Positions 1,470 through 57,709 of a stretch of 64,000 nucleotides of DNA are shown here, piece after piece. Positions within the stretch are counted from its first letter, which is position 1. The number at the start of each line of letters is the position of its first letter. This DNA comes from Candidatus Uhrbacteria bacterium (GTDB taxonomy: Bacteria > Patescibacteriota > Patescibacteriia > UBA9934), in NCBI GenBank assembly GCA_903827265.1, contig CAIKHN010000003.1:24392-88391 (forward strand), in the 5' to 3' direction. The position numbers were made by a program, and so were the translations under genes. The notes below the pieces were generated by a model, which had not been told where the DNA came from, made no database searches, and was given only the letters and a program-made list of their open reading frames with translations.

Positions 1470-1474
1470 TCTTC

Positions 1475-33166: not shown

Positions 33167-33232
33167 TCATTGCTGTTAATGCAGATGTAGATTATCTCGT
33201 TTTAATGTCTTTGTCTTCTTGATTGTGATTAA

Positions 33233-33787: not shown

Positions 33788-34099
33788 ATTGGCTCGATAA
33801 ATATTTATTAAGATTGAAAGGCGCGCAAAAACAAAAAGCGACACCCGGTGGTGTCTCTACCCAACCCATGCACGGATAGTGCACAGACTGTTTTAACCGG
33901 ATGCCGCTTTATGGGCGCTATCCGGAAATAGGCAAAAAAATGCCCTGTACGGGTTGAGTAGAGACTTCCGAAGTGTATAACAATGATCAAGGTTATTCAA
34001 CATCACGCAACATTTACCAACAGTGGTGTCAAAATTTGCGTGAGTTTACAAAAGAGGAGAAAATTACCGTAATCTAAATAAGAATGCGAATAAGAATCT

Positions 34100-34801
34100 A
34101 TGAGGAATGATGGTGTACGTGACCTGCATCTTGCGGTCGCATGGTCGTGTCGACGATTGGAAAAATTACTTGCGCTTGACCCTAAGTGCAGTGAGGTGAC
34201 TTATTGGTTCGCTCCCGACACGTCGGATGAAAAAGCTCCGCCACTCGGGGATCAAGTATTAGCCTTGAGCTATCTGGAAAACCAACAGGCGCTCGAGATC
34301 GGGCAAGCTGTCTATCGAAATGAGCTCTATAATCGCGTCGGTGCTCCAGAAATGTTCGGCGCGAAATCTGATGGCTATCGCGTGGAAATAGTTTCTAAGA
34401 GCTTCGAGAGAATCTGCAAAGAGTTACGTCCACTCATAGATAAGCTTGGTGTCTACCTTGTTCGCGCTGACCATGATTTTAATGACTTGAAACAGCCGAT
34501 TCTTGTTTTTGAGAATAAAGGCGCGGATTTTTACGTAGAGTTCAGCGGCGAACGAGTATCCATCAAACAACACTCTCGACAATTTGGCCTATTGGCGGCA
34601 TTAAAAGAACAGCGAGGACGTCATCTACCGGAAAAGGAATGTATTGAGGCGGCAAATCATTACGTGACCAAAGGGAAAACATTTATTACGGGCAAAGATA
34701 TTTACTTCACTCTTCGTGACATTAAGAAAAAGTTAAAAGTTGGAAAAAGTTGCGTTTTTCCAATCGAGCTAGAGAATAATCAGTATATTTGGCGCAAGTA
34801 A
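34100..34801 (+). CDS. Hypothetical protein (island cargo)
   Basis: 233 aa, divergently transcribed from the NTPase operon. No recognisable motif. Confidence 0.4.
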   Translation: MRNDGVRDLHLAVAWSCRRLEKLLALDPKCSEVTYWFAPDTSDEKAPPLGDQVLALSYLENQQALEIGQAVYRNELYNRVGAPEMFGAKSDGYRVEIVSKSFERICKELRPLIDKLGVYLVRADHDFNDLKQPILVFENKGADFYVEFSGERVSIKQHSRQFGLLAALKEQRGRHLPEKECIEAANHYVTKGKTFITGKDIYFTLRDIKKKLKVGKSCVFPIELENNQYIWRK

Positions 34802-34859
34802 ATAAAAACTCAACTCTCTCAACAAAACCTTCCACAATCGTAAATAGAGCCAACATGAA

Positions 34860-35132
34860 ATGCTCTCGGTGCAAAACATCGTGAGCATTTTTATGTCTGA
34901 TACATATACGACCACCAACTTCTATCTCGCCGCATTCCTCTGTGCATCAGGGGTTGTTTTTGTGTCGGGAGAGCGGTTGGCGGATACACGCCAGACAGCT
35001 TTTCACTTCGAAGAATCAATGAAACGCAAAGAGCTTTCAAGTGCGTTTCTTGTTGGTGAAGAAGTGGAAGTGAATGTTCATGCGTTTATTGCGCAGCTCA
35101 AACGTTTGAAATCAATCATTCACGACGGATAG
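34860..35132 (+). CDS. Small hypothetical protein (island cargo)
   Basis: 90 aa. An alternative start is MSDTYTT at 34893. Confidence 0.3.
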   Translation: MLSVQNIVSIFMSDTYTTTNFYLAAFLCASGVVFVSGERLADTRQTAFHFEESMKRKELSSAFLVGEEVEVNVHAFIAQLKRLKSIIHDG

Positions 35133-35440
35133 CTCGAATAATACTGGCCGATCAGGGTGCGCGAACCACTGTGCCCCGGCTGGATGCGACTTAAATCAGT
35201 GGATACATGAACCCGCGCCGATCCCCGCGTTATCCCGGGATGCGTCATAGGCAGTAAGGGCATGAACGTCACGAAGCGCTGATATGCCAAGGCGCACGTG
35301 CGTAAACGAAGTTAGCTCTACCGGGCGCTTCGATAGCAGGCATTGCAGGACGTCGGAGAGAAATCCGATCAACGTCCGAAGTATTCGCGTGATACCGCTT
35401 TATTCCCCATTTTGCGTCTCGGCAGTAAGGCAGAAAGAAT

Positions 35441-35830
35441 ATGAAAGACAATCGATTCCAAAAGATCATCTCGGACTACTTAGGACAATTGATCGGTACG
35501 AACGAAGAGGAAGCTTGGAACGTTCGTATGAACGGAAAACGGGCGCAAGTCACCATCCGTGGGCCTACGGGAATCTTGAAGAAAACCATCTCTCATCCCG
35601 GCTCACTTCTAAAGAAAAACTTTCACGATGAGCTAAAAAAGATAGGGAATGTTCAAAAAAAGGCCAATGTCATTTCATACCCGTTAATACAGCGGATTAA
35701 AGCGTTTCGGTTGGTAAAGCTGACCAGAAAACGCGGGAAAAGACAGTCATTAAAGTACGCAATAAAAAAACAGAGTGAGGAGACGGAAAGTAACAGGACA
35801 CGTGCACGTTTTCGAAATCAAAAGATTTAA
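35441..35830 (+). CDS. Small basic hypothetical protein (island cargo)
   Basis: 129 aa, Lys/Arg-rich C-terminus. Confidence 0.3.
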   Translation: MKDNRFQKIISDYLGQLIGTNEEEAWNVRMNGKRAQVTIRGPTGILKKTISHPGSLLKKNFHDELKKIGNVQKKANVISYPLIQRIKAFRLVKLTRKRGKRQSLKYAIKKQSEETESNRTRARFRNQKI

Positions 35831-35849
35831 AATCATAACAAGTAAAAAT

Positions 35850-36245
35850 ATGCATTCAGAACATCGAGAGCCCACAAAAGAAGAGGTGAGTGTAATAGAA
35901 AAGATCGACCTCGATTTGTGCGGAAGGGCTTTGGCAGGCGCTCTTTGGTTTCATGCCTACGATCAAGAGACATTGGTGCTGGATAAGGATGGTCTGGAAT
36001 GGTTGGTGTGGGAGCTTCTTGATGAACTCAGTCTTTCCGGCTTCATGTACCAAACAGTTTCTACCTTTGCAGAAAATAGCAAAATAAAACCTGTGGAATG
36101 TGCTGAGTGCAAAAAAGAAAATGGAGATGAAGAAGACGGAGATGGAATCAACTCACCATGCCCTAGCTGCGAACAGCCTCTGACCGCAGAGGCGGAATTA
36201 CCGCCTCTACCGCCACCGGGTTGTTCTGAGAAATCTGATTTTTAA
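35850..36245 (+). CDS. Small zinc-ribbon protein, paralog 1 (AYDQE-LxLDxxGL family)
   Basis: MHSEHREP start. WFHAYDQETLVLDKDGLEWLV core. C-terminal CAECKK...CPSCEQ. Confidence 0.45.
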   Translation: MHSEHREPTKEEVSVIEKIDLDLCGRALAGALWFHAYDQETLVLDKDGLEWLVWELLDELSLSGFMYQTVSTFAENSKIKPVECAECKKENGDEEDGDGINSPCPSCEQPLTAEAELPPLPPPGCSEKSDF

Positions 36246-36249
36246 ACCT

Positions 36250-36621
36250 ATGCACATCACGGATCCGAAAGGCTCGGAAGAATGCTCGGCCTGTTACGGA
36301 ACGGGGATCATTCCTAAATCGTCCGCAACCTCTGACCACTCGACCGAACCAATTTCGCACATCTCAGATTACATGCAGGAAATGCGCTCGATCTTCCTAA
36401 ACACAAAGAATAGGACGGTTTTTCAGCGAGTAGATTTAGCCGAAGATCTTTGGATCATTGCCTATGACCAAGAAGATTTAATTCTAGATGACGAAGGGCT
36501 CAAGGATCTCTTAAACATTTTCCTGTTCGGCTCTCATTATTACGATTCAATTCGTGACGCAATTAGTAAGTATATCGATAAATACGTTATGAACCGCGAT
36601 GCAGAAGAAGTGAACGAGTAA
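36250..36621 (+). CDS. Small zinc-ribbon protein, paralog 2 (AYDQE-LxLDxxGL family)
   Basis: N-terminal CSACYGTG. WIIAYDQEDLILDDEGLKDLL core homologous to the preceding gene. Confidence 0.45.
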   Translation: MHITDPKGSEECSACYGTGIIPKSSATSDHSTEPISHISDYMQEMRSIFLNTKNRTVFQRVDLAEDLWIIAYDQEDLILDDEGLKDLLNIFLFGSHYYDSIRDAISKYIDKYVMNRDAEEVNE

Positions 36622-36778
36622 ACAAAAGTTGCCTGTGCATCTCCCTAACGAAATCAAGACAGAAATCCGATTGCTGTTCTCCCGCCCCGGAGAGCAGCTT
36701 TCGGATTCTGACGTTGAGGAGATTGCACAGAACCTTTTGTCATTCGCCCTTCATCTATCACCTGCAAAGGGATAGAAT

Positions 36779-38416
36779 ATGACCATGAAGTATTTCATCT
36801 ATTGTCGCCGATCAAGTGACCGGGAAGACAAACAAACGCTCTCCATCGATGCTCAAATTCGTGAGCTAAAGGTGCTCGCAGAAAAAGATCATCTAGAAAT
36901 CGTTGACACCATCGTGGAATCACAATCCGCCTACAAAACAGGGCGGCCATTTTTCAATTCAATGCTTGAGCGCATCGAGCTTGGACAAGCAGACGGGATC
37001 ATCGTATGGCAACCAAATCGTCTTGCCCGTAATTCCTTAGATGGAGGGCGGCTGATCTACATGATGGATCAAGGGTCATTGAAAGAGATCCGCACCATGT
37101 CCAAGCTCTTCACGCGATCCGGTAACGACAAGTTCTTTTTGCAAATCGAATTTGGCATGGCAAAGAAGTCATCCGATGACACTTCGGATTACATGAAGCG
37201 TGATGCTCAATCCAAACTTCTCAAAGGCGAATGGACGGGTATGGCTCCCGTTGGTTATTTGAACGTTGATGCGCAAGGAAAGATTGCGGGCAACTTTTAT
37301 GATCACGACAAGCAGACACAACTATTAAAGCTTGGCAGGCCATTGCGCCGAATTGAAAAAGACCCGGTGCTAGCGCCCCTTATACGTCAGTTTTTTGATT
37401 ACTATCTTGCAGAGTACCGAACCTTGAAAGAGGCGGCGGCTTTCATGAATTCTCTCGGGGTTAAAAGTATCCGCCGTCATGGTCGCTATTCCATCAGCAT
37501 GGTGGAGAGAATTTTAAAGAATCCTTTTTACACCGGGCAGCTTCGGTATGAGGGGGAGCTTTTTGCTGGTGTACATGACCCCATCATTAGCACGAAGGAA
37601 TTTGAATTGATTTCGCAACGGTTTAACGGACACTCTCACCCAAAAGTAGTGAGTTACGATTTTGTGTATCGAGGGCTCGTGCGATGCGCTGAATGCGGTT
37701 GTTCCGTGGTGGGAGTCCACAAGGTAAAGCCTTCCGGTAAGGAGTACGAATACTACACGTGTAGTAAGCGCAAAGGTGAATGCGGCCAGAGACCATCAAA
37801 ACCTGCAGACATCGATATTCAGGTCGAAGAGCGTCTTCGTGCCATTCAAATAGATGAACGCGTGTGGGAGCTGTGCAAGAAGCTCTTACACCTTCATTAC
37901 GCGGAGCAAGTGGATAGCCAAGTCCTCATTCGTGAAAAGTGGCAAAAGGATCTCGGCAATGTCGATAAACGTACAAATGCCTTGTTGGAACTCTATATCT
38001 CGGGTTTGCTCGATAAAGAGGACTACACTAAGAAGAAAAACGAGTTGTTGTCTGAAAAGATGGCTCTGACAGAGAAGCTTAGTGACAGCGGGCAAGCGAC
38101 GACCAATTGGCTGCAGCAGACCGAAGACTTCTTTGGGTTGGCTCATGCCGCGTATGAGATATTTAAGAGCCCTCAGACGACGTTGGCACGCAAGAAACAG
38201 ATTGTGCAGGACATCGGTTGGAACTTAGAGATTTCCGAGGGAAAGCTTAATTGGCAATACAAAAAGCCGTTTGATTTTCTTGTAGAGCGACAACCAGCGA
38301 AAGTTTCGGTTGGAACTCGTAAATATGGCTTAGCTAAAAAGAAAAACACCTCTCTCGAAAGAGAAGTGGTTTTCTGGCGGGACGGACGGGACTCGAACCC
38401 GCAACCTCTGCCGTGA
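36779..38416 (+). CDS. Large serine recombinase (integrase)
   Basis: 545 aa. Resolvase catalytic domain YCRRSSDREDKQTLSIDAQ, then VWQPNRLARN, then a recombinase domain, then zinc ribbon CAECGCSV...YYTCSKRKGECGQ, then coiled coil. The 3' end runs 42 nt into tRNA-Asp. Confidence 0.8.
   Translation: MTMKYFIYCRRSSDREDKQTLSIDAQIRELKVLAEKDHLEIVDTIVESQSAYKTGRPFFNSMLERIELGQADGIIVWQPNRLARNSLDGGRLIYMMDQGSLKEIRTMSKLFTRSGNDKFFLQIEFGMAKKSSDDTSDYMKRDAQSKLLKGEWTGMAPVGYLNVDAQGKIAGNFYDHDKQTQLLKLGRPLRRIEKDPVLAPLIRQFFDYYLAEYRTLKEAAAFMNSLGVKSIRRHGRYSISMVERILKNPFYTGQLRYEGELFAGVHDPIISTKEFELISQRFNGHSHPKVVSYDFVYRGLVRCAECGCSVVGVHKVKPSGKEYEYYTCSKRKGECGQRPSKPADIDIQVEERLRAIQIDERVWELCKKLLHLHYAEQVDSQVLIREKWQKDLGNVDKRTNALLELYISGLLDKEDYTKKKNELLSEKMALTEKLSDSGQATTNWLQQTEDFFGLAHAAYEIFKSPQTTLARKKQIVQDIGWNLEISEGKLNWQYKKPFDFLVERQPAKVSVGTRKYGLAKKKNTSLEREVVFWRDGRDSNPQPLP
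38370..38384 (+). repeat. Proximal att direct repeat overlapping the tRNA-Asp 3' end
   Basis: ttttctggcgggacg is identical to 26601-26615. It covers the 3' terminal 10 nt of the tRNA (including CCA) plus 5 nt of flank. Confidence 0.6.
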
Positions 38417-38451
38417 CAGGGCAGCGCTCTAACCAGTTGAGCTACCGACCC
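38375..38451 (-). tRNA. tRNA-Asp (anticodon GTC)
   Basis: Reverse complement GGGTCGGTAGCTCAACTGGTTAGAGCGCTGCCCTGTCACGGCAGAGGTTGCGGGTTCGAGTCCCGTCCGTCCCGCCA. It has a cloverleaf, a CTGTCAC anticodon loop and an encoded CCA. It is close to E. coli tRNA-Asp. Confidence 0.85.
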
Positions 38452-38607
38452 AAAAGAATGTTTCCATGCTTTTTGAGTCTGTTTGAAGCGCTGATAGGAT
38501 ATCAATAGGGGGATTTTTTGACAAGTATTGGTGTGAGGAAATGTGTAGAAAAGACGTGTGCCCGACTCTCCGGAGAGAATCGGGCACAGTGTAGCCCTTG
38601 CGTGGAG

Positions 38608-39060
38608 CTACTTGGTCGTCGCGGTGTCGGTGCCGGTATCGGTCCCGGTGTCGGCCGGGGGGTCACCGCACTCGCCACCATCCCATGCGATGATGCATCG
38701 GACGGTCAGCCCGGTCGCGAGGACGACCGGCTCCGTGGAGCTGGCGACGAGGTCGCTCTCGACCACCCAGTACGGGGCGCCATCCGCGGCCACCGACATC
38801 GCCCACTTGGACGGCTTCCCGTCCTTGTCCGCCCCGCGGACGATCCCTTCCGCCAGCACAGCTCGCGGGGTGGTTCCGTCGCAGTAGAAGAGCGGCGCCT
38901 TGCCGGAGGCGAGGTCGTCGGTCCACAGCAGGTGGCCGGCGGCGAACGTGGTCATCGTCACCCCTGGGGGCGGGGTGCACGAGGGGCCGGTGGCCTTGGG
39001 GATGTCGCCGTTGCAGGCAACGAGGAGGATGGTGAGAGGCAGCGGCGCGATGATGCGCAT
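38608..39060 (-). CDS. Lipoprotein in a high-GC (about 70%) patch with C-terminal DTGTDTGTDT repeat
   Basis: Start MRIIAPLPLTILLVAC (lipobox), GGAG SD. The overlapping plus-strand ORF is judged to be an antisense artefact of the high GC. Confidence 0.5.
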   Translation of the reverse strand: MRIIAPLPLTILLVACNGDIPKATGPSCTPPPGVTMTTFAAGHLLWTDDLASGKAPLFYCDGTTPRAVLAEGIVRGADKDGKPSKWAMSVAADGAPYWVVESDLVASSTEPVVLATGLTVRCIIAWDGGECGDPPADTGTDTGTDTATTK

Positions 39061-39298
39061 GGGAACTCCGTTCTTCGTGGGACGCGCCGGCATAGGGGAA
39101 TCCCTTTGCAGACGACTCAGAATTATGCCAGAAAATCGTGATTTGGTCAACTATACGTTATAAAAACGATGTATTTTTCTTGCGGTAAAACGGGGGTATA
39201 ACTCCGCTGAGTGTGCTCGATTTTCTGGTACAATAGTTGCGTATCTGCGCAACTCTTTTTGTATGCACGTGTGCTGATATCTGGATTTTGCGTCGCCT

Positions 39299-42200
39299 AT
39301 GCTCAGGGGAATATTCCGAAAGGATTCGAAGGGCTCGGAAGGGGTGGTTCGACGTGATGCAGACAGGCTCGAGCGAACGTATCGGCACCATGATGCAATC
39401 CGAAAGGAGGCTGTAGCATACGTCGTAAGCCAAGACCAGTCGTTTCATCCACTTCGAAGGCTCTTTGCCACAGTGCGCCATGTTTTTGCATTTGCAGCAA
39501 AATTGGTGTTGCCAGATTTTATTGTTGGGCATCCGAATCTTTGGGACAACTTGAAAGTATTAGTGTCTGAGCGGTCATTTCGTCCGTTGCGTAGCGCGGT
39601 GGTTGCGTGGCTGATTTTCTCCATCATCGTCATGTCTTCAGGACTTTATGCGGTTATTCGTCCGCAGCGAGCCGAGGCGTCGGGAACGTTCTCGATGAAA
39701 ACGGGGTACTACATGGGTACTGGTGCCTCGCTTTCCATTTCTGGTGTCGGCTTTCGTCCGGAAGTGCTTATTATTAAGGCCGATACCGCTGCGGGTTCCA
39801 TGATCTGGAAAACGTCCACCATGCCGTCGGCGACGACGTCGTATCTTGGTGTTGCAACGGCCGACAACAACGACAGCGAAATCTCTCTTGATAGCGACGG
39901 GTTTTCCGTGTCGACAGCGCTTGAAGTAAATACGGTGAACGTGCGGTATGTCTATGCCGCGTATTACGGATCAGATTGCTCGTCGAGTGGCGTTATGTGC
40001 GTGGGGTCGTATACCGGTTCTGGTGCAGCGAGCCAGGTTATTTCAACAGGATTCCAGCCAGATTTAGTTATTGCAAAACGTACGAGCGCAGTAGTAGCGA
40101 ACTTCCGTACGTCGTCGATGCCGGCAAGCAACGCGGCGTTTTTTTCAGCAGCCGTGAACGATGCAACCGGTGTGTACTTCCAGACGCTCGATGTGGGCGG
40201 AAGTTTTACGGTTGGTGCAACAAACAACGGTTTAGCCGGCGTGTTTAACTATGTCGCGTTTAAAAACCTCGCGGGAAGCATGTATGTTGGAACGTTTACC
40301 GGCGACGGTCTTGATAACAAAAACATCGCTGGTGTGGGATTCGAGCCTGACTTTGCGCTCGTAAAACAAAACAGTGCTAACGCGGCGGTATTTAATACAA
40401 CGGAAACGTGGGGAGATAACTCCTCGGTTGCAACGGCAACGGCAAACACCGTGAACAACATTCAAAGTCTTGATGCGGATGGTTTTCAGGTCGGTAACTC
40501 CGTGAACGTGAATGCGAACACGGTGGTGAGTTTTTATTTTGCCATGGGTGGAGCTCCAGACCCAGCGCCGGCCGGGACGTTTTTAATGGAGCGTGGTTCA
40601 TATACCGGTACTGGAGTTGCACAGTCTATTACCACAACGTTCCGACCAGATTTGGTCATGATTAAAGCGAACGCAACGCAATACGGTGTGTGGTCGACGA
40701 GCATGGAAAACAACCTCACGCATTATTTTGCGAACTCTGCGGTTGGATTTGCTGACGGTATTAAGTCCATGGCCGCTACAAGCTTTACTGTTGGTGCAAA
40801 CGCAACGGTGAACGGCTTAGGAAATACGTATGAGTACACGGTGTACGGCAACGCAACGACGCCACAACGTGGTGCCGGTGCTGCAGACTTCATGATTGGA
40901 ACGCATACCGGAAATGGTATTACCGCGCGAAGCATTGACCATCTTGGCATAACGCCGAGCATGATTACCATGACACGTACCATTACGACCGCTGCGCTGA
41001 CCATGTGGAAAGCTGCAAGTCCAACAATGGCCGACAATACTGCGGCATATTTTTCTGCGACTGCTGACGTTACCGACGGAACGGCATTCGCGGCGATAGG
41101 AACAACAGCATTTAGCCTTGGGACTGCTGCGACAACCAATGCGGCGGCCGGTTCTTACGTGTGGTTTGCATTTAAAGAAGGCGCACAGTTCGACATTGGA
41201 AGTTATACAGGTAGTGGTATTTCAGGAAAAAACGTGACCGGTCTTGGATTTAACCCTGCGTTTGTTTGGACAAAGGGTGCTACGGCAGTACAGGGTTCAC
41301 ACCGTTCAACGTCAACAACTATTTCTGGAGCAACCGCGCAGTATTATACGAACATCGTGAACGCCGCTGCGGTAATTATTGCCTTCGTGAGTGACGGATT
41401 TACTGTGGGTACTGCCGCAGAAGCCAACTCAAACACCGTATCGTACCGTTATTCGGCATGGAAGAGTACGTCTTCTGCAAACGCTCCGAGTACGCCAACG
41501 AATAGTTCTCCTGCATCGAGCGCAACCGGGCAAGGCTTAACCGTCACGCTTACGGGCTCTGCGTACAGTGACCCGGATTCAAATGCGCAGACTGATGCTA
41601 TGTGGCAGGTGGACGACGACGCCGATTTTGCGACTCCTGTGTGGTCTCGAACAGCGGGAGCGGCAGAAGCAACCACATCGGTTACGTCAGGAAACGGAAC
41701 GTTTGCGAATGAACTTGCAGGAGATACCGCCCTCGACCACAACACAACATACTATTGGCGCGTGAAATATTCCGATGGAATGTGGTCGAGTTGGTCGACG
41801 GGAACGTCGTTTACCACAAACACTATCTCGACGCCAACACATTCGTCGCCAAGCGATGGTGGAACGGTAACAACACTCACGCCAACCTTAACAGCATCAG
41901 CATTTTCTGATGCGCAAGGTGGGCATTCGAGCGCGTATGCACAGTGGCAAATTGATACGGGTAGTACATTTACGTCGCCTTTGTATGACTCGGGAACGGT
42001 AAGCTACGGAAATTCTCTTGCGGTTCCAGCGGCAACGCTTTCCGACAAGACCACGTATTATTGGCGCGTTCGTTACGAAGACTCCACAAACCAGTGGTCG
42101 CCATACTCAACAGCAACGAGGTTTTACGTTGCGCAATCGCTTGTAGCGGTGTACCCGCTGTTTAGTGGCTCTGTTGTCGACCAAGGCGATTCGGTGAATT

Positions 42201-45200
42201 TGGATGTTCAAGTAAAGCTTACCGACGGAACAGCAATTAACGACGCGACCGTCACAGTAAACGTGTATAACCCTTCGGGGACAAAAATTGTGACTGCGCA
42301 GGCCATGAGCTATTTATCTGGTTCAAGCGGAGTTTATCGGTACACCTATACGGTTCCAAGCACGAGCGGAAGTTATTTGTATGAAGTTTCAGCAACGTCT
42401 GGAAGTGTTTCCGGAACGGGAGCAGCGAACTTTGCTGCGAGAACAATTTCGCATGATATTTCGGCAATTTCATCGGCAGTGACATTGAATGAGGCGGCAG
42501 CAGCGGCAGAACGTGCCGCGGCATCTGCAGAGCGCGCGGCGCAGTCAGCGTCACGTGCAGTCGTGTTGAGTTTGCAGACTGATATTACTGGCCTTGTTTC
42601 AGAAATTGGAACTGGCAGAATTTCGGCAATTAAAACTGCGACTGATAGCATCGACTGGGCAGACGTGACGGGGATCGTGACGGATACTGGGGCAATTAAA
42701 CTGAAGACTGATACCATCAACTGGTCACATGTGACGGCCATTAAGACGGCGACCGATACTATCAATTGGGGTGACGTTACAGGAATCGCGACCGCTGTTT
42801 CGAGTTTACAAACAAGCCTCGCATCGCTGATTACAGAAATCGGAACCGGGAACATCGCCGCAATCAAAACAAAGACAGATACTATTTCTTGGGGGAATGT
42901 GACGAGTCTTGTCACAGAGTCCGGAGCGATTAAAACAAAAACCGACAGTATCGATTGGACGCAAGTTGCCGCAATCAAAACGACGACCGATACGATTGAC
43001 TGGGGTGATGTGACAGGAATCGATGTAAAGATTACCGCGTTGCAATCGAGCCTTGCGGATCTTATTACTGAAGTTGGAATTGGGAGTATCGCCGCTATTA
43101 AAACCGCGACCGATACAATTGATTGGGGAGATGTTACAAGTATTCTCACTACCACCGGTGCAGTGAAAACGACGACAGACACGATTGACTGGTCACAGGT
43201 TGCCGCAATCAAGACCTCGACAGATACGATTGATTGGAGCGACGTGACAGGAATCGCTACTGCGGTTTCGGCGCTTCAAACGAGTCTAGCCTCATTGATT
43301 ACGGAAATCGGAACGGGAAATATTGCCGCAATTAAGACTGCGACGGATTCAATCAACTGGAGCAACGTCACGACGATCGTCACGAACACGGGCGCGATTC
43401 AAACAAAGACCGACACGATCGATTGGGGTGACGTTGCGTTAATTAAGTCAGCAACAGACACGATTGATTGGACCGACGTTACGGGGATCGATGTAAAAGT
43501 TTCGGCGGTTCAAACAAGCATTGCGGGCGTGGTTTCGGAGATTGGAACCGGAAATATTGCCGCAATCAAAACAAAGACTGACACCATTGATTGGGCGGAT
43601 GTTTCAGAGGTGGTAACAACAACCGGTACCATTCGAACCTCGACGGATGCTATTAGCTGGGCTGATGTTGCGGCGATTAAAACAAAGACTGACACGATTG
43701 CGTGGGGAGATGTCACGGGCATTAAATTAAAAACGGACACGATCGCGTGGGGAGACATTACAACAATCAAAGCGAACGTTGCGTCGCTCATGACCGAGAT
43801 TGGGACCGGGAATATCTCGGCAATCTTAACGTCAACGTCGGCGATCCCTATTGAAGATTTAACATCACTCGTCACAACAACTGGGCAAATTAAGGCGGCA
43901 ACCGATACGATTGATTGGGCCGACATTGCGGCAATCCAAACCAAGACTGACACGATTGATTGGGATGCGGTTACTGGTATTAAAGTGAAGACAGACACTA
44001 TTGCGTGGGGAGACGTTGCAGCGATCGCTACACAGCTCACCGCGGTGCAGAACAATCTTGATGTCTTGATTGGTGCAATGATTGTGACGCGTTCGACGGT
44101 GAGTGATGCGTCGGCAACGTCGACGTCGTTTGTGACTGCGCTGTCAAACACGACAGACAATTTTTATACGAATGCCGTCTTGACGTTCACGAGCGGAACG
44201 TTAAACGGACAGGTTCGTCGTATTTCGGCATACAACGGAACAACAAAATCCATTACCGTCAGTCCTGCGCTTTCACTTGCACCAGGGAATGGCGACGCAT
44301 TCACGATTGCAAAGCAAAATGTCTACATTGAGCAGCTTGCGGCGGCGAACGAAGCGACGCAAGCATCGTTCCGTTCAGACGTCACATCGCGCTTAACGTC
44401 GATTGAAGGAAAAGTCGATACCTTAACAACAATGCTTTCACGTGTTGAGACGAATTTGGACAGTTTGCAAACCACGGTTGATGCACTTCGTGCGTCGCAA
44501 GACATGGCGTACACCGTCATACTTTCTGATGTTTCAGAAGTTCAGGCTGGAGAGACGTATCGCGCAAAACTCACAATCTCGAATTTTGAATCAGATCCCG
44601 CAGACGCGTCGTCGACTCCAACAATAACTATTTACGATTCCACGCGGACGGTGATTGTTTCTGAGGCAAGCATGACGAAGCTCTCGACCGGTGTGTATGA
44701 ATACACGTCATCTGTTTCGTCAGATGCAACGGGTGGACTATGGGAGTCTGTCGTTTCTGTTGATGCGGGCGGTGCACAGAATTTAACGCGAAACGATTAT
44801 TGGCAAGTGTCCGGTGCGCCATCGCAGGTGCTTATTACGGCAATGACCGATCTCGTCATTCCAGATATTTCGGCGGCGGTGACTATCACGAACGAGGGTG
44901 GCGCAGAATATGAATATCATTACGAGTGGTGCGTGGTGTCGTCGATGGATAATGATTGCGGCGGCGATGACGACGTGTACTACGCGTCCGCGGCAAAGCT
45001 CATTGATGTTGGCGATAGTTTTCATACAACGCTGACGGCAACGGTCGCAACAACGGGCTCGTATTGGTTTAAGGTGATGGTGTATTTCGGCACGCAAGGA
45101 AGTGGAGCATCACGAACGTTCGTCGCGGTTGCTGCTGACGGAGGTGATGGCGGTGAAACAAGCAGTTCGTCTGGTTCAAGCGGCGGAAGTTCATCGCATG

Positions 45201-46729
45201 TCACTCCAGATATCAGTTTGGCAACGAATGAAACTATTTACGCAGAAATCACCGCTACTCGGCAGGAGCTGGCGCTGAATGCTGCAAATCTCACGAGCGT
45301 TTTGTCGACGGTCGGCGTTCTGTCGTCGAGTTTGGAAACGTTGCTTGCGGTGGGAAATGAAAATACGCAAGGTTTGCAGGATGTGCAAAATAAGATTGCG
45401 GATTTACGTGCGGTTGCGGCAACGACGCAGCAACTTATCGCAAGTAATTCTGTGCAGCCAATTGTGCAAACGTACATGAAGTTCAATTCTGTTGAAATTC
45501 ATTTCCTCATTACGAATCCTGCAGACATTGAACAAACCGTGCACTTTAGCGCCTTCTTGCCGGAGGAGGCAAAGCCGGAGGATGTTCTGGATTTGAGTGG
45601 TTTGAGTATTGATTACGATGCAACAGCAAGCGCGTATCGCGTGTATGGCGACGTCACACTCGGACCAAAAGAAACCATCACAAAGAAAGTGGAAATGAAG
45701 GATATTTGGGTGTACGCAGAAGAGGATATTGCGGCGATGCGCAAGCAGATTGCATCGCTTGTTCCGTCACTTACTGGCACGCAATACGCAGCGCAGGCAT
45801 CGCTTCTTCAGAGTGATATTACTGCCGCACTCGATCAGATTACATCGTCACAGAACGCGAGCTATTCATCGCCGCAGGAGCATATTGTGACGTATCGCAG
45901 TAATGCCGATGTGATGGCGCGTGCACAAACGGCGGTGGAGAAATTGAAAGATCTCGTTGTTGAGGCGGGTGCATCACAGGGTGTTGTTGGAAAGATTGGT
46001 GGCATTCAAACATTCACAACGTGGGGGATTATTCTTGCATTGGTGTTTGGATTCGGACTTTTAGCGGCGGTTATTTTCTCGATGTGGCGACATCAGACGG
46101 TGTTGGCGGCAATGTCGCTGGGAATGTCGCAGCAGGAAGCGATGGCGATGATTTCTGGGAGATCCGTCGCGCGAAGCGTTCGGTCTTCTCGACCTGCTCG
46201 CATTTCTCGGAAACGAACGTACGTTACAAGCGTGCCGTGTGAAAATTCATTGTGGGATCGGATAAAAGCCTGGCCGTGTGCAGCGACTCGTTCGCGGATC
46301 GTACTCGGAATAATATTTTTGGTACTTGTGGGCGTTGCAGTGTTTTCTATTTACACCGCGATGAAAGGTCGGTCGGTTTCGTCTTCAAAAGAAGAGCAAA
46401 ACGATATCACCAACATAACCGAGGCACCGATTGTTATGGCTCAAGATATTCCTGCTCCTGTAGATCCAGAGCCAGAGCCAATTATCCCTCCTGTTGAGGT
46501 GCCCGTCGTTGTTACGCCTTCGGTTCCGTATGTTGTTATCTTAGATACCCCAACAGGATGGCTAAACGTTCGTGACCGTGCGGATTTGAGTGGGGGAGTT
46601 GTCGCGAAGGCGTTGCCGGGTGAGAAATACTCGTATCAGAAAACGGAAAATGGATGGGATGCTATCGTTCTGTCGAATGGAACGATCGGTTGGATTTTAG
46701 GAAACTATGCGACGATCGTCTCAGAATAA
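39299..46729 (+). CDS. Giant (2476 aa) multi-domain surface protein: N-terminal cytoplasmic region plus signal-anchor TM, repeated beta-domains, FnIII-like domains, long 11-residue tandem array, two late TMs, C-terminal SH3b domain
   Basis: Uninterrupted ORF. Roughly 120-aa modules recur (GSYTGTG...FRPDLV...). The array is AIKTxTDTIDWxDVTGI with a superperiod of about 80 aa (...LQTSLASLITEIGTGNIA). TMs IILALVFGFGLLAAVIF and IVLGIIFLVLVGVAVFSIY. C-terminal SH3b (GWLNVRDRADLSG...GWDAIVL). Confidence 0.75.
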   Translation: MLRGIFRKDSKGSEGVVRRDADRLERTYRHHDAIRKEAVAYVVSQDQSFHPLRRLFATVRHVFAFAAKLVLPDFIVGHPNLWDNLKVLVSERSFRPLRSAVVAWLIFSIIVMSSGLYAVIRPQRAEASGTFSMKTGYYMGTGASLSISGVGFRPEVLIIKADTAAGSMIWKTSTMPSATTSYLGVATADNNDSEISLDSDGFSVSTALEVNTVNVRYVYAAYYGSDCSSSGVMCVGSYTGSGAASQVISTGFQPDLVIAKRTSAVVANFRTSSMPASNAAFFSAAVNDATGVYFQTLDVGGSFTVGATNNGLAGVFNYVAFKNLAGSMYVGTFTGDGLDNKNIAGVGFEPDFALVKQNSANAAVFNTTETWGDNSSVATATANTVNNIQSLDADGFQVGNSVNVNANTVVSFYFAMGGAPDPAPAGTFLMERGSYTGTGVAQSITTTFRPDLVMIKANATQYGVWSTSMENNLTHYFANSAVGFADGIKSMAATSFTVGANATVNGLGNTYEYTVYGNATTPQRGAGAADFMIGTHTGNGITARSIDHLGITPSMITMTRTITTAALTMWKAASPTMADNTAAYFSATADVTDGTAFAAIGTTAFSLGTAATTNAAAGSYVWFAFKEGAQFDIGSYTGSGISGKNVTGLGFNPAFVWTKGATAVQGSHRSTSTTISGATAQYYTNIVNAAAVIIAFVSDGFTVGTAAEANSNTVSYRYSAWKSTSSANAPSTPTNSSPASSATGQGLTVTLTGSAYSDPDSNAQTDAMWQVDDDADFATPVWSRTAGAAEATTSVTSGNGTFANELAGDTALDHNTTYYWRVKYSDGMWSSWSTGTSFTTNTISTPTHSSPSDGGTVTTLTPTLTASAFSDAQGGHSSAYAQWQIDTGSTFTSPLYDSGTVSYGNSLAVPAATLSDKTTYYWRVRYEDSTNQWSPYSTATRFYVAQSLVAVYPLFSGSVVDQGDSVNLDVQVKLTDGTAINDATVTVNVYNPSGTKIVTAQAMSYLSGSSGVYRYTYTVPSTSGSYLYEVSATSGSVSGTGAANFAARTISHDISAISSAVTLNEAAAAAERAAASAERAAQSASRAVVLSLQTDITGLVSEIGTGRISAIKTATDSIDWADVTGIVTDTGAIKLKTDTINWSHVTAIKTATDTINWGDVTGIATAVSSLQTSLASLITEIGTGNIAAIKTKTDTISWGNVTSLVTESGAIKTKTDSIDWTQVAAIKTTTDTIDWGDVTGIDVKITALQSSLADLITEVGIGSIAAIKTATDTIDWGDVTSILTTTGAVKTTTDTIDWSQVAAIKTSTDTIDWSDVTGIATAVSALQTSLASLITEIGTGNIAAIKTATDSINWSNVTTIVTNTGAIQTKTDTIDWGDVALIKSATDTIDWTDVTGIDVKVSAVQTSIAGVVSEIGTGNIAAIKTKTDTIDWADVSEVVTTTGTIRTSTDAISWADVAAIKTKTDTIAWGDVTGIKLKTDTIAWGDITTIKANVASLMTEIGTGNISAILTSTSAIPIEDLTSLVTTTGQIKAATDTIDWADIAAIQTKTDTIDWDAVTGIKVKTDTIAWGDVAAIATQLTAVQNNLDVLIGAMIVTRSTVSDASATSTSFVTALSNTTDNFYTNAVLTFTSGTLNGQVRRISAYNGTTKSITVSPALSLAPGNGDAFTIAKQNVYIEQLAAANEATQASFRSDVTSRLTSIEGKVDTLTTMLSRVETNLDSLQTTVDALRASQDMAYTVILSDVSEVQAGETYRAKLTISNFESDPADASSTPTITIYDSTRTVIVSEASMTKLSTGVYEYTSSVSSDATGGLWESVVSVDAGGAQNLTRNDYWQVSGAPSQVLITAMTDLVIPDISAAVTITNEGGAEYEYHYEWCVVSSMDNDCGGDDDVYYASAAKLIDVGDSFHTTLTATVATTGSYWFKVMVYFGTQGSGASRTFVAVAADGGDGGETSSSSGSSGGSSSHVTPDISLATNETIYAEITATRQELALNAANLTSVLSTVGVLSSSLETLLAVGNENTQGLQDVQNKIADLRAVAATTQQLIASNSVQPIVQTYMKFNSVEIHFLITNPADIEQTVHFSAFLPEEAKPEDVLDLSGLSIDYDATASAYRVYGDVTLGPKETITKKVEMKDIWVYAEEDIAAMRKQIASLVPSLTGTQYAAQASLLQSDITAALDQITSSQNASYSSPQEHIVTYRSNADVMARAQTAVEKLKDLVVEAGASQGVVGKIGGIQTFTTWGIILALVFGFGLLAAVIFSMWRHQTVLAAMSLGMSQQEAMAMISGRSVARSVRSSRPARISRKRTYVTSVPCENSLWDRIKAWPCAATRSRIVLGIIFLVLVGVAVFSIYTAMKGRSVSSSKEEQNDITNITEAPIVMAQDIPAPVDPEPEPIIPPVEVPVVVTPSVPYVVILDTPTGWLNVRDRADLSGGVVAKALPGEKYSYQKTENGWDAIVLSNGTIGWILGNYATIVSE

Positions 46730-47177
46730 TTCTCGTGCGCGTTTTGCGCTGAACTTTGGGCCGTCGCCGTTGTGGCTTCCTGCGCTCGCGGCGATTGTTG
46801 TTGGTGCAATACTCCCGGTGTTGCTTATTCCTGTGATTCGCGTGACGGGGTTTTCTGAAGGCGTTGAGGAGGTCGCGAAAGGTATTGTGGTTTGGATTCT
46901 TGCGTTGTATTCCGTCCGTACGTGCGATCGTCTTGGATTTGCCTTGGCGTTTGGCACGATGTTCGGACTTTCTGAATCGATGCTGTACGCGAATCAAATC
47001 GCGCAGCTTGGAGACTGGTCGGTACTTTGGCTGCGTATATCGCTAACGATTCCTCTTCATGCGCTCACGGCACTGTGCGTTGCTTGGGGTATTGGACGAG
47101 GAAGAATGTGGGGGGCGCTTCTTGGTGTTGGTGTAGCGATTGTTTTGCATTTGGCATTTAATGCGCAGGGTTTTTAA
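46707..47177 (+). CDS. PrsW-family intramembrane protease
   Basis: EEVAK (EExxK), FGLSE (FxxxE) and two His (HALTAL, HLAFN) in a polytopic membrane protein. It overlaps the giant gene's 3' end by 23 nt. Confidence 0.55.
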   Translation: MRRSSQNNSRARFALNFGPSPLWLPALAAIVVGAILPVLLIPVIRVTGFSEGVEEVAKGIVVWILALYSVRTCDRLGFALAFGTMFGLSESMLYANQIAQLGDWSVLWLRISLTIPLHALTALCVAWGIGRGRMWGALLGVGVAIVLHLAFNAQGF

Positions 47178-48454: not shown

Positions 48455-48853
48455 GGGCCTGACGGGTTTCGATACTCTTCGGATCCTCACAAATCACGCC
48501 GGAAGGGCACCATATTCCGAAATCCCGTGGTGCAACGAGATACTTGCAAACGCATTCTCAAAGGTGAAGGCAGCTATCGCTTCGGCGTTTAGCGTTCCTT
48601 CATTCTCATTGGTTACCGCCTAAGGGCCGCAACCCATCCACTTCGCAATGCCTCATAGCGGAGTTCGGGTGCAATATTATGAGACTATAGGCGTTCTCTT
48701 GTTCGCTCAGAGAACGTAACCCGTTGCAGCGAAATCGTGTCGATGATTCTTGTTCCGTCTTATCATCGCCCCGTACTTGACGGAACTGCGCGTGGAACAA
48801 ATTTGTTTGGTGAGGTGGGGTAGACGAGGGTTCAACTCCCTCCAGGTCCACCA
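48455..48853 (+). ncRNA. ssrA: tmRNA (ssrA)
   Basis: 5' GGGCCUG pairs with 3' CAGGUCC-A-CCA to give a tRNA-Ala-like acceptor stem with G3:U70. T-arm GGGTTCAACTCCC. Length is about 400 nt. smpB is 1.6 kb downstream. Overlapping protein ORFs are rejected. The tag reading frame was not resolved. Confidence 0.65.
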
Positions 48854-56719: not shown

Positions 56720-56791
56720 CGCAGTACGGTTCGGCTGGGAGGGAAGAGGGTAAAACCTCGACTCTCCCGGCCGAACGCCCAACCCTACACA

Positions 56792-56820
56792 TTGACATTT
56801 TCCCAAATTTCTGCTATAGT
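56792..56820 (+). promoter_or_regulatory. Consensus sigma70 promoter TTGACA-17-TATAGT (copy 1), followed by a 172-nt conserved leader
   Basis: Exact -35 and -10 hexamers with a 17-nt spacer. It is duplicated at 57681-57709. Confidence 0.6.
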
Positions 56821-56992
56821 ATTTTGTTCACAATTGATGCCTTTTCAAGTCCAGTCCATGCAAGCAGTGAAGCGAAATCTTCACTTCTGTCATGGTCTGG
56901 GTCTTACTCCCGACGCCGCTTAATTCTGAGCGCGTGAGGGGTGTCCCTCGATCAACGTTCTCGTCCGAAACCCCAAGGCCATAGGAGCCATC

Positions 56993-57571: not shown

Positions 57572-57680
57572 TCGCCCGGTCGCGTGACCGATTCACGCAC
57601 CTTACGTCCCGGCATTCTTCCAACACACGGTTGGTGAATGTCCGGGGCGTTTGCATTTTGGAAAAACAGCAAGAAACATA

Positions 57681-57709
57681 TTGACATTTCCCCAAATTTC
57701 TGCTATAGT
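57681..57709 (+). promoter_or_regulatory. Consensus sigma70 promoter TTGACA-17-TATAGT (copy 2)
   Basis: Identical hexamers and spacing to copy 1, followed by a 95%-identical leader. Confidence 0.6.

Follow-up and report, generated by a model that had tools for sequence, protein, structure and literature searches.

The locus analysed here raises two connected questions, namely what the long tandem repeat array within a giant surface protein of the CPR/Patescibacteria is for, and whether this protein is a substrate of the PrsW-type protease whose gene overlaps the end of its own. CPR/Patescibacteria represent a large share of bacterial diversity and their cultivated members are attached to host cells; to our knowledge, the way in which they build attachment structures is largely unknown. 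The window, by which we mean the whole stretch of DNA that was analysed, comprises 64,000 nucleotides from a Candidatus Uhrbacteria bacterium, and the giant gene with its parts and the PrsW gene are encoded by its forward strand.

The giant gene (39299..46729), as defined by its open reading frame and translation, specifies a membrane-anchored protein of 2476 aa. The same protein was found on at least 17 independently assembled public contigs (ENA, NCBI and Logan) that derive from several samples and two assemblers. A first-pass annotation of this DNA had proposed a cytoplasmic N-terminus, a transmembrane (TM) helix, an ectodomain of about 2100 residues and two late TM helices flanking a basic loop. 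This topology is supported by hydropathy and charge, and by helices at TM2 and TM3 in AF2 models. The N-terminal 100 residues contain 19 K/R versus 11 D/E. TM1 (aa 102-120; 39602-39658), identified by hydropathy, belongs together with the cytoplasmic juxtamembrane motif LVLPDFIVGHPNLWDNLK to a conserved N-terminal module (aa 56-125; 39464..39673). It is followed by repeated modules of DUF7483 that resemble phage tail-fibre proteins (aa 126-760; 39674..41578). In Pfam, DUF7483 (PF24299) scores 68.4 bits in five stretches of the giant protein, the gathering cut-off being 27 bits, and the region matches the PHROGs family phrog_24898, 'tail fiber protein', with an E-value of 1.3e-23; a description of DUF7483 was not found in our literature search. 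An MG2 (Ig-like) domain (42185..42394; PF01835, 34.5 bits) is located directly 5' of the array, and an architecture comparison revealed that MG2 also abuts the array in homologues of the dockerin class. The Ala-rich lead-in to the array (AAAAAERAAASAERAAQSASRA; 42446..42568) is predicted to be helical from its sequence and from the AF2 array model, where residues 2-21 form a helix of low confidence. Behind the array, a post-array segment (44069..44533) consists of a small domain (FYTNAVLTFTSGTLNGQVRRISAYNG...) and a heptad coiled coil (SIEGKVDTLTTMLSRVETNLDSLQTTVDAL) assigned from the a/d spacing in the sequence; all Pfam matches of this segment, to Phage_BR0599 (E 0.018) and several coiled-coil families, are sub-threshold. 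A second Ig-like (MG2-like) domain with a weak MG2 match (E 5.5e-4) and a Cys-containing domain (YEYHYEWCVVS...C) then occupy 44534..45148. These two domains are common to the dockerin-class homologues and are kept in 24 locus ORFs.

The C-terminal part of the protein starts with a conserved module of 247 aa (aa 2027-2273; 45377..46117), a predicted beta-sandwich plus helical hairpin that ends in GGIQTF-TM2-MWRHQ. Its alignment is gapless with a mean column identity of 64%, and its AF2 pLDDT values are mostly 80-95. The GGIQTF motif (45998-46015) precedes TM2 (aa 2244-2262; 46028-46084), which is indicated by both hydropathy and an AF2 helix. The loop between TM2 and TM3 (46085..46297), modelled by AF2 with low confidence, is predicted to be cytoplasmic and is basic, with 12 K/R versus 2 D/E. 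It leads to TM3 (aa 2334-2352; 46298..46354; hydropathy score 2.89, AF2 helix), a Pro-rich linker and an SH3b domain (aa 2410-2476; 46526..46726). The presence of a C-terminal SH3b domain, already proposed in the first-pass annotation, is supported at the level of the fold although the Pfam scores are sub-threshold: the SH3b profile (PF08239) is below its threshold and SH3_3 scores 22 bits with a cut-off of 27 bits. The AF2 model of this region has pLDDT values of 93-97 and superimposes on bacterial SH3 domains with an rmsd of 1.5-1.9 Å and a Foldseek probability of 1.0, the matches being 4krt (rmsd 1.5 Å over 69 columns), 2krs (TM-score 0.76), 9ovi (TM-score 0.74) and 2kt8, and the SH3b domain of the orthologue P0024 scores 42.3 bits. 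As had also been noticed at first pass, a PrsW gene overlaps the 3' end of the giant gene, and we place this mini-PrsW gene of 156 aa at 46707..47177, with an overlap of 23 nt. It matches PF13367 with 31.4 bits (gathering cut-off 23.5 bits; E 1.7e-7) and carries EEVAK, FGLSE, LHALT and HLAFN; at least 90% of 51 relatives retain the corresponding motifs EE..K, SE, H..T and H...N.

The array itself was found at 42569..44023 (aa 1091-1575), essentially where it had been reported (42560-44030). It contains 20 copies of the core [A/G]-I-K-T-x-T-D-T-I-D-W-x-D-V-T, a motif that did not occur in any of 2000 shuffles of the array region. The consensus of the unit is A-I-K-T-K/A-T-D-T-I-D-W-G-D-V-T, with T6 and I9 being invariant and I2, D7 and W11 present in 19 of the 20 units. 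Roughly 40 copies of an 11-residue unit had been claimed before. Our count gives 20 intact cores, or about 30 when degenerate units are included, and the unit recurs with a basic spacing of 15 aa, of which the 11 residues are no more than the conserved core; units of 22 aa and degenerate variants also occur. The previously suggested superperiod does exist, but its value is exactly 78 aa and not 80 aa, since the core start-to-start spacing of 22, 15 and 41 residues recurs four times over. Six super-repeats were delineated with nucleotide starts at about 42566, 42800, 43034, 43268, 43502 and 43760; each of the first four spans 78 aa, and the final two are irregular, with about 86 aa. A super-repeat profile matched six consecutive units, each with an E-value between 1e-32 and 1e-37. 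The stretch LQTSLASLITEIGTGNIA, which had been taken for a separate punctuating spacer, is better read as one degenerate core unit together with what an 8-aa deletion has left of another, as judged from an alignment to homologues with an 86-aa superperiod. Among themselves, the super-repeats show 45-81% amino acid identity and 50-72% nucleotide identity, and at conserved residues only 24-53% of the codons are identical. These comparisons indicate that the repeat is genuine and that selection acts on it at the level of the protein.

No credible match of the array was obtained in Pfam, PHROGs, NCBIfam or the PDB sequences, and a tblastn search against 50,697 phage genomes returned nothing, which agrees with the earlier impression that the array belongs to no known repeat family. 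Likewise, our literature search gave no description of the repeat. The only PHROGs match was phrog_18725 (function unknown), with an E-value of 0.002. CDK5RAP3 (PF05600) reached 40 bits on the array, which is above its cut-off, by covering about 60 of the 502 profile positions in three repeated stretches. We judge this match to be a compositional false positive and, with its score above the Pfam threshold on a repeat, a likely annotation trap. The profile match to the designed armadillo protein 4rzp (summed E 1e-5, 4-8 bits per repeat) and the match to SdeC (E 0.018) were attributed to chance.

A profile of the repeat retrieved 101 clusters among 1.84 billion representatives (1.84e9), 50 of them at E≤1e-10. 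These are mostly surface proteins of CPR/Patescibacteria and Omnitrophota with 2-35 cores, and the same range of cores per array was observed across 66 species-representative loci. Besides, there is one phage tail protein: only 1 of 2.9 million IMG/VR contigs contains the repeat, within a tail protein of an uncultured phage. A match of the unit to a known phage tail-fibre repeat had been named beforehand as an observation that would speak against the first-pass annotation. Such a match was not found, and the occurrence of the unit in a phage tail protein supports a fibre and does not refute it. In P0044, a collinear orthologue with 52-56% identity, 15 cores recur with a period of 71 aa, compared to 20 cores at 78 aa in the present protein. 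Altogether, the array was encountered in three settings, namely proteins with a signal peptide, MG2 and a dockerin, TM-anchored proteins, and the phage tail protein. This variety of settings and the variable copy number imply that the array is a portable, length-variable cassette. We refer to it as the KTD-W repeat, which is a previously undescribed, apparently fibrous repeat with a 15-aa unit and super-repeats of 71, 78 or 86 aa. The locus provides a new and rare fibrous repeat that is common to surface proteins of CPR and Omnitrophota and to a phage tail protein, and its copy number appears to set the length of a stalk.

The structure of the array was approached with an AF2 monomer model of three super-repeats based on an 11-row alignment. 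This model had a pLDDT of 50.5 and a pTM of 0.26, which is too poor for a fold search, and it displayed, at low confidence, 20-residue helices at every spacer and some short strands. Within the 15-mers, the hydrophobic periodicity has its peaks at 2.5, 3.0 and 7.5 residues, and no peaks were detected at 3.5-3.75 residues (helix) or about 2.1 residues (strand). This pattern supports no simple beta structure and no coiled coil of the canonical type, and the latter was rejected for the 15-mers. Low confidence of AF2 monomers is typical of obligate oligomeric fibres. Indeed, the context of the array, with its tail-fibre PHROG match, coiled-coil flanks and failed AF2 monomer, suggests a fibre, and we infer that the array is extended and probably oligomeric. 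The domain types of the protein would be compatible with a role in adhesion.

Alternatively, a single chain of the array might fold into a beta-solenoid in which every turn takes up 15 residues, with a Thr-rich face (T-x-T-x-T) and the Trp residues stacked as a ladder. Such a solenoid would serve as a binding surface or as a rigid rod made of one chain, and not as part of an oligomeric fibre. The strict recurrence of K-T-K-T-D-T with a period of 15 aa, the small residues at positions 1 and 12, the near-invariance of I2, I9 and W11 (I9 in 20 of 20 units, I2 and W11 in 19 of 20), the short strands in the AF2 model and the strong 2.5/3.0-residue periodicity, which would fit the short sides of a polygonal turn, would all suit such a structure, and insect antifreeze beta-helices have turns of 12 to 15 residues with T-x-T. 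However, solenoids are usually predicted with confidence by AF2 from the monomer, whereas here a pLDDT of 50 and 20-residue helices at the spacers were obtained. The irregular unit lengths (15, 22 and 19-26 aa), the coiled coils that flank the array and the presence of the repeat in a phage tail protein also argue against a solenoid, and we consider it unlikely. Some parallels can be drawn with the alpha/beta coiled coils, homotrimers in which hexads or nonads with the consensus [aliphatic]-A-T-K-[polar]-[DE] introduce beta-layers into a heptad coiled coil (Hartmann et al. 2016, PMC4786415). Like these fibres, the array has a short period, is flanked by heptad coiled coils and varies in copy number as a spacer would. 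Its IKTKTD agrees with the beta-layer consensus at 5 of 6 positions and its unit length of 15 equals 6 + 9. On the other hand, position 3 varies, the would-be N-cap position is variable within the family (T, A, L, V or S), and the hydrophobic periodicity of the array is not helical. The stalk repeats of tail fibres and trimeric adhesins, including 15-residue fibre shafts, gave no sequence or profile match to the array, although a phage tail protein is among the carriers of the array repeat as well.

We then consider the relationship with PrsW. Among 49 metagenome loci selected by the C-terminal module alone, a PrsW-like gene of about 157 aa follows the module in 46, which corresponds to 46 of the 47 evaluable loci, as two of the three loci without PrsW have less than 360 nt of downstream sequence. 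Only 4 of the 49 loci contain the repeat, which is therefore an optional cassette. Conversely, all 11 distinct CPR-type loci that were selected by the repeat have PrsW within 1.1 kb, and L074 has it also. PrsW is found at 0 of about 18 dockerin-class loci, and the Omnitrophota-type loci have a related C-terminal module with flanks devoid of PrsW. PrsW is also present in relatives without TM3 and SH3b. The PrsW partner tracks the 247-aa C-terminal module, and neither the repeat nor the SH3b domain. In most of the C-module loci, the start of PrsW overlaps the giant gene or is located within 55 nt of it. Co-transcription is not universal: about 8 of the 49, together with several of the loci selected by the repeat, have their PrsW gene in convergent orientation at a distance of 0.9-1.9 kb. 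Conservation is much higher in TM2 and its flanks than in the loop or in TM3. About 20 short-form relatives carry GGIQTF, the TM helix and a basic tail of 14-52 aa at their extreme C-terminus, while the equivalent segment of the giant protein is internal, with TM3 and SH3b behind it. A word-indexed search with PrsW retrieved only 2 proteins, and no description of the pairing of a giant protein with PrsW was encountered in our literature search. The conserved adjacency strongly supports the functional link between the giant protein and PrsW that the overlap of their genes had suggested at first.

Our preferred interpretation, to which we assign a probability of roughly 60%, is that the array is a fibrous, length-tunable stalk and that the C-terminal module is paired with a dedicated mini-PrsW that cleaves at the TM2 segment. 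The KTD-W array would then be a stalk or spacer cassette of tunable length in the surface fibres of both CPR/Patescibacteria and Omnitrophota; at least one phage tail protein contains it as well. In the present protein it lies mid-way in the 2,100-residue ectodomain, where it would space the DUF7483 and Ig modules from the membrane-proximal C-terminal module. The ectodomain would be held to the membrane at both ends, by the N-terminal signal-anchor and by the C-terminal TM hairpin with its putative wall-binding SH3b domain. The C-terminal module (GGIQTF-TM-MWRHQ plus basic tail) and the mini-PrsW encoded at the 3' end would represent the invariant part of the system, in which PrsW would most probably recognise the conserved juxtamembrane/TM2 segment, cut there, and so mature or release the fibre. 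From the gene linkage we infer that PrsW may process the giant protein in this way. It should be noted that cleavage at TM2 would split SH3b from the fibre, which is awkward for a model with a wall-bound fibre.

The proposed pair resembles known sorting signals that have a dedicated enzyme, such as MYXO-CTERM/MrtX, LPXTG/sortase, PEP-CTERM/exosortase and GlyGly-CTERM/rhombosortase. The C-terminal module is also tripartite (GGIQTF, a TM helix and a K/R-rich cytoplasmic tail), and its partner is likewise a predicted membrane protease, from the superfamily that includes CPBP, with tight genomic linkage. In contrast to these systems, which use a tag of about 30 aa, a whole ecto-module of 247 aa is conserved here; the pairing is one-to-one and adjacent instead of many-to-one; and the signal of the giant protein is internal instead of C-terminal. 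Myxosortase, a protease of the CPBP family, cuts a C-terminal signal that is composed of three parts (PMC11980579). That signal has an invariant Cys, whereas GGIQTF..TM has no Cys or lipidation site, and the enzyme in the present system, with about 157 aa, matches PrsW and not CPBP. By these features, the GGIQTF module and mini-PrsW are to be regarded as an analogue and not as a member of MYXO-CTERM/myxosortase. PrsW domains have been predicted to process filamentous toxins, and a relationship between PrsW and CPBP has been noted (Zhang et al. 2012, PMC3482391). These PrsW-linked polymorphic toxins similarly combine PrsW with large, filamentous, modular surface proteins and predicted proteolytic release. 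However, their PrsW is fused at the N-terminus and their cargo is a C-terminal toxin, whereas PrsW is a separate downstream gene at the present locus, where Pfam and profile searches detected no toxin or immunity domains. The dockerin-cohesin surface proteins, which are cellulosome-like, include about 18 homologues with the same array and Ig/Cys domains that end in a type I dockerin, and a cohesin gene is located 2 kb from one related locus. The giant protein differs from them by having no dockerin and by its TM helices and SH3b as anchors.

A more specific and more tentative version of our interpretation, for which we see less than an even chance, would be that the C-terminal module and the adjacent PrsW of about 157 aa form a new sorting or maturation system specific to CPR/Patescibacteria. 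In such a system, one enzyme would serve one substrate and cut phage-fibre-like giant proteins at or in TM2, releasing either a C-terminal assembly module or the free fibre, and KTD-W would be an interchangeable stalk cassette exchanged with phages. In this respect, the very tightly conserved combination of a giant modular surface protein with a minimal PrsW looks like a dedicated processing system of the sortase/myxosortase kind that employs a different enzyme family. This hypothesis is directly testable, since the small size of the module and of the 156-aa enzyme would permit their co-expression in E. coli.

The PrsW pairing could also reflect regulated proteolysis. The giant protein would then be a contact sensor similar to RsiW, PrsW would perform a site-1 cleavage upon engagement so that the N-terminal cytoplasmic module is released as a signal, and the repeat would be a force-transmitting tether. 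RsiW of B. subtilis is the only characterised PrsW substrate that we know of, and mini-PrsW shares the family PF13367 and the conserved motifs with B. subtilis PrsW. Like RsiW, the candidate substrate has a cytoplasmic N-terminus and a single TM helix in front of a large extracytoplasmic part. A PrsW gene also adjoins the gene of the candidate substrate. In addition, the module of about 70 aa that comprises the cytoplasmic motif and TM1 is kept in distant relatives (L007, L077, L074/75, P0051 and L004; E-values of 1e-18 to 1e-35), which suggests a cytoplasmic function. Against this, mini-PrsW is only about 157 aa long with fewer TM helices than its B. subtilis counterpart, and RsiW is an anti-sigma factor of 208 aa, whereas the candidate substrate is a putative fibre of 2,476 aa with no sigma factor nearby. 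The N-terminal 134 aa gave no match to a Pfam family, an anti-sigma domain or a DNA-binding domain, and neither a sigma factor gene nor a site-2 protease gene was seen adjoining the locus. Moreover, PrsW co-varies with the C-terminal module and not with the N-terminal module, which was found in only about 6 lineages, many of the C-module loci being too short to show it. A signalling function of this kind therefore seems improbable to us.

Alternatively, the adjacency might be incidental, or PrsW might serve a different purpose, for example in immunity or in the quality control of the membrane, with the giant protein not being its substrate. CPBP/Abi relatives can be immunity proteins, and both the convergent orientation in several lineages and the Omnitrophota relatives of the module that have no adjacent PrsW could be seen in this light. 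However, the presence of PrsW at 46 of 47 evaluable loci that were selected independently of it, with a start overlap or a distance of at most 55 nt in most of them, and the retention of its catalytic residues make this explanation quite improbable. A passive anchor would also hardly account for the extreme degree to which TM2 and its flanks are conserved.

Lastly, although short-read metagenome assemblies can mis-assemble tandem repeats, it is very improbable that the array arose artificially, whether by the collapse or chimerism of a repeat during assembly or by a wrongly called ORF, as the copies are only 50-72% identical in their DNA and therefore unique to k-mers of 141, TRF reports no more than one weak 66-nt array, the identical product recurs across the 17 or more contigs described above, the frame of the giant ORF is intact over 7.4 kb, and homologous arrays exist in 66 genomes. 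The first-pass annotation had itself voiced a concern about repeat collapse, which the divergence of the copies and these contigs make unlikely; the array DNA is identical in L001-L003. A serine recombinase upstream of the giant gene was considered as a means of its mobilisation and rejected, since the 3' end of tRNA-Asp faces the low-GC side (27-38 kb), which places the giant gene outside the recombinase element. A recombinase is located at the equivalent position in only 2 loci.

The giant gene (39299..46729, + strand, from ORF calling and translation) encodes a membrane-anchored protein of 2476 aa, in which aa 1091-1575 (nt 42569-44023) form a tandem array. The first-pass annotation had placed this array correctly, but its counts were wrong, and the observation is therefore partly confirmed. 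A regular expression for the repeat core identified 20 copies instead of about 40 (0 matches in 2000 shuffles of the array region), and the unit comprises 15 rather than 11 residues, A-I-K-T-(K/A)-T-D-T-I-D-W-(G/S/A)-D-V-T, in which T6 and I9 never vary and I2, D7 and W11 are kept by 19 of the 20 units. The start-to-start spacing of the cores is 22, 15 and 41 residues four times over, followed by 22, 15, 15, 34, 22, 15 and 15. Five super-repeat starts are spaced by exactly 78 aa, close to the 80 aa reported before, and a super-repeat profile matched six successive units in the array with E values of 1e-32 to 1e-37 each. The spacer, previously taken for a separate punctuating element, aligns with a degenerate unit in homologues (LQTSLASLITEIGTGN of the window spacer with IKTNVATLITEVGTGN). 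The homologous super-repeat usually measures 86 aa (19+22+15+15+15), and relative to it that of the window carries an 8-aa deletion with loss of the core of one unit. Two antisense ORFs run across the array (42373-43212, -, 279 aa; 43510-44160, -, 216 aa); they are probably by-products of the repeat codon composition and not genes.

An assembly artefact is unlikely as the origin of the array, since its copies are diverged and the same product recurs in other assemblies. The super-repeats share 45-81% protein identity versus only 50-72% DNA identity, identical codons are used at only 24-53% of their conserved residues, and Tandem Repeats Finder reported just one weak 66-nt array. This indicates that the copies are old, that they have been maintained by selection at the protein level, and that they are distinct enough to survive short-read assembly. 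ENA, NCBI and Logan assemblies contain at least 17 contigs that encode an identical 2476-aa product, and three of these loci match the window base for base across the array. In the three public assemblies L001-L003 of this locus, exactly 7 positions differ from the window in 11-13 kb, all of them synonymous third-codon positions within 43 nt of the SH3b-coding region (46579-46621), which may represent a short patch of between-strain recombination.

The earlier view that the array belongs to no known repeat family holds, as neither Pfam, PHROGs, NCBIfam nor the PDB sequences provide credible cover. The sole Pfam hit was CDK5RAP3 (PF05600; 40 bits versus a gathering threshold of 22.6 bits), but this match (42560-44068) extends over only about 60 of the 502 profile positions, and we regard it as compositional, probably a false positive, which automatic pipelines might propagate. 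PHROGs returned one family of unknown function (E 0.002), NCBIfam nothing, and the PDB sequences chance-level matches only. Relatives of the array are few: 42 proteins were found by a word-indexed search, and only 101 among 1.84 billion cluster representatives by an exhaustive profile search (50 at E≤1e-10). Scanning a single genome from each species yielded 66 loci, most of them from Patescibacteria (Falkow-, Nomura-, Curtiss-, Moranii-, Taylor- and Gottesmanbacteria, Paceibacterota, Saccharibacteria) and Omnitrophota, besides a few Zixibacteria or Lentisphaerales and one Bathyarchaeia, while several automatic 'Gammaproteobacteria/Planctomycetales' labels look doubtful. The repeat varies in length, from 2 to 35 cores per protein, and is spread in a modular manner: it occurs in proteins like that of the window, with both ends membrane-anchored, in secreted proteins (signal peptide, MG2, array, Ig, Cys-domain, type I dockerin), and, as 2-3 units, in large Omnitrophota proteins. 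The closest collinear orthologue, P0044, is 52-56% identical end to end and has 15 cores with a 71-aa superperiod, versus 20 cores and 78 aa in the window protein. About 2 kb from a related locus with a giant protein and PrsW, L005 has a cohesin-domain gene (15890-16567, -), whose product is potentially a receptor for the dockerin-bearing proteins with the same repeat.

A fibre or stalk role of the array is supported by three observations. Firstly, the repeat is used in one of 2.9 million IMG/VR contigs, L073, which is a true phage and a relative of the Flavobacterium psychrophilum FpV4 group (61% amino acid identity in a structural protein). Its tail protein (6099-8444, +, 781 aa, phrog_17517) has an N-terminal F5/8-type-C domain and five repeat units close to the C-terminus. 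Secondly, the N-terminal DUF7483 modules of the giant protein match a tail-fibre PHROG and, thirdly, predicted heptad coiled coils flank the array. Yet the array does not correspond to a known phage tail-fibre repeat, and tblastn did not find it in 50,697 sequenced phage genomes. In the phage tail protein the repeat is accompanied by FWEALTSS..GSFGKL and PLLTTDSRLNNLDATISS motifs; the cellular homologues P0016, P0001 and P0002 have similar ones, VWDE..GHTAGTFGKYLD and VW..RTLTS, next to the repeat or interspersed with it.

The AF2 model of aa 1084-1345 (11 aligned rows) reached a pLDDT of 50.5 and a pTM of 0.26, with a 20-residue helix at each spacer and short strands near VTGIVT and AIK. In the 15-mers, hydrophobic periodicity is highest at 2.5, 3.0 and 7.5 residues and weak at 3.75 and 2.14, which does not match a canonical amphipathic helix or a plain strand. 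IKTKTD resembles the beta-layer consensus of alpha/beta coiled coils, [aliphatic]-A-T-K-[polar]-[DE] (PMC4786415), although the would-be capping position is variable in the repeat, and the unit shares its 15-residue length with fibre shafts and small beta-helices. These likenesses are leads only.

Hydropathy and charge agree with the topology proposed earlier: a K/R-rich N-terminus of about 100 aa, TM1 (aa 102-120), an external part of about 2,120 residues, TM2 (aa 2244-2262), a basic loop (12 K/R versus 2 D/E), TM3 (aa 2334-2352), and a Pro-rich linker followed by the final domain. For aa 1960-2476 (18 rows), AF2 gave a mean pLDDT of 75, with helices at TM2 and TM3, a beta-sandwich and helical hairpin preceding TM2, and a C-terminal beta-barrel (pLDDT 93-97). 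This barrel superposes on bacterial SH3 domains (4krt of phiSM101 endolysin, 2krs, 9ovi, 2kt8), so that the proposed SH3b domain, for which the Pfam score was sub-threshold, is supported by its fold. Two anchor modules are conserved. The N-terminal one (aa 56-125), with LVLPDFIVGHPNLWDNLK ahead of TM1, recurs in L007, L077, L074/75, P0051 and L004; the C-terminal one (aa 2027-2273) is a gapless 247-aa module ending in GGIQTF(A/T)TWGI, TM2 and MWRHQ, and conservation is far stronger in TM2 with its flanks than in the loop or TM3. In L077 (2148-2804) a second giant gene starting with the same N-terminal module directly follows the first, and in L076 (3268-6736) a gene of >1293 aa follows the PrsW gene; giant genes can thus sit in tandem.

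As noted in the first-pass annotation, a PrsW gene overlaps the 3' end of the giant gene. This mini-PrsW (46707..47177, +, 156 aa) overlaps it by 23 nt, scores above the PF13367 threshold and carries the motifs EEVAK, FGLSE, LHALT and HLAFN; by profile and motifs, the predicted enzyme is a member of the PrsW family. A PrsW-like ORF was present within 1.1 kb of the 3' end in all 11 distinct membrane-anchored loci of the CPR (Patescibacteria) type found through the repeat, and in 0 of about 18 loci of the dockerin class. In a repeat-independent test, metagenome contigs were scanned with the C-terminal module alone, and 46 of the resulting 49 loci had a PrsW-like ORF immediately downstream, mostly on the same strand and overlapping or ≤55 nt away, with about 8 in convergent orientation 0.9-1.9 kb away; of the three loci without one, two have <360 nt of downstream sequence. 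The repeat was present in only 4 of the 49. The invariant system in CPR is therefore the C-terminal module with its mini-PrsW, and the repeat is one optional ectodomain cassette. In about 20 module-found loci (e.g. P0131) the protein ends 14-52 aa past TM2 with a K/R-rich tail, lacking TM3 and SH3b. The catalytic motifs are retained: among 51 distinct mini-PrsW proteins (median about 157 aa), EE..K, SE, R, H..T and H...N are kept in ≥90%. The PrsW gene next to P0021 was overlooked by the public gene call. Omnitrophota-type loci have a related, internally duplicated module, and PrsW was not found nearby; in L009, L041, L046, L047 and L067, which bear this label, the module is a separate downstream ORF without PrsW in the flanks, and its beta-sandwich part (profile positions ~37-200) is duplicated.

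We infer that the array forms an extended, probably oligomeric stalk tuned in length by unit gain and loss, that the giant protein would mediate attachment, and that mini-PrsW would recognise the conserved juxtamembrane/TM2 segment and cleave there. Cleavage could release the fibre from an assembly module at the C-terminus, leave it attached by TM1 or be part of RsiW-like signalling. As cleavage at TM2 of the giant protein would part SH3b from the ectodomain, the term 'cell-wall-bound fibre' is unsafe for the mature product. The earlier interpretation is partly supported. The short-form relatives are laid out like C-terminal sorting signals, with a motif, a TM and a basic tail, and such a signal was recently shown to be cleaved by myxosortase, a CPBP protease (PMC11980579). 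The CPBP family is distantly related to PrsW, and filamentous toxins have been predicted to be released by PrsW domains fused to them (PMC3482391). Among known systems, the nearest are sortase-like signal/enzyme pairs, especially MYXO-CTERM/myxosortase, PrsW/RsiW, PrsW-linked polymorphic toxins, phage and adhesin stalk repeats, and dockerin-anchored surface proteins. The giant protein and its module are members of none of the known substrate families. Both the fibrous repeat family and the coupling of a conserved C-terminal module to an intramembrane protease appear to be new, and we found no paper on DUF7483, the repeat or the module/PrsW pairing.

Elsewhere in the window, a low-GC block (27254-38451; 0.42-0.46 versus about 0.50 outside it) includes a gene for a 1970-aa protein, part of which is Avs1b-like, and is closed by the gene of a large serine recombinase (36779-38416), the 3' end of which overlaps tRNA-Asp (38375-38451, -). 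The block resembles an integrated element that carries a defence gene, and it lies just upstream of the giant gene without including it. In the Curtissbacteria relative L004, a different serine recombinase (1268-3013; E 1.8e-19 to that of the window) overlaps tRNA-Leu (2782-2867) directly upstream of the orthologous DUF7483/giant gene, and this recurrence at another tRNA may be a coincidence or mark an integration hotspot. Between tRNA-Asp and the giant gene, public annotations call a gene for a 207-aa ORF with a TTG start (38518-39141, +), which has no family match and contains a 12-nt tandem repeat (38618-38654). A high-GC block (56000-62000; 0.59-0.63) includes a 774-aa ORF (58929-61253, +) with nine putative metal-binding motifs of the MopE type (PF11617, E 4e-81), fully overlapped on the opposite strand by a 691-aa ORF without a family match. 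A 3137-aa ORF (3314-12727, +) combines an N-terminal Mbov_0395-like, pilin-like conjugal-transfer region with five cysteine-rich acidic repeats (TIGR02232). Lastly, the tmRNA gene (48455-48853, +) has an unusually long predicted tag peptide of 25 residues, ANAFSKVKAAIASAFSVPSFSLVTA.
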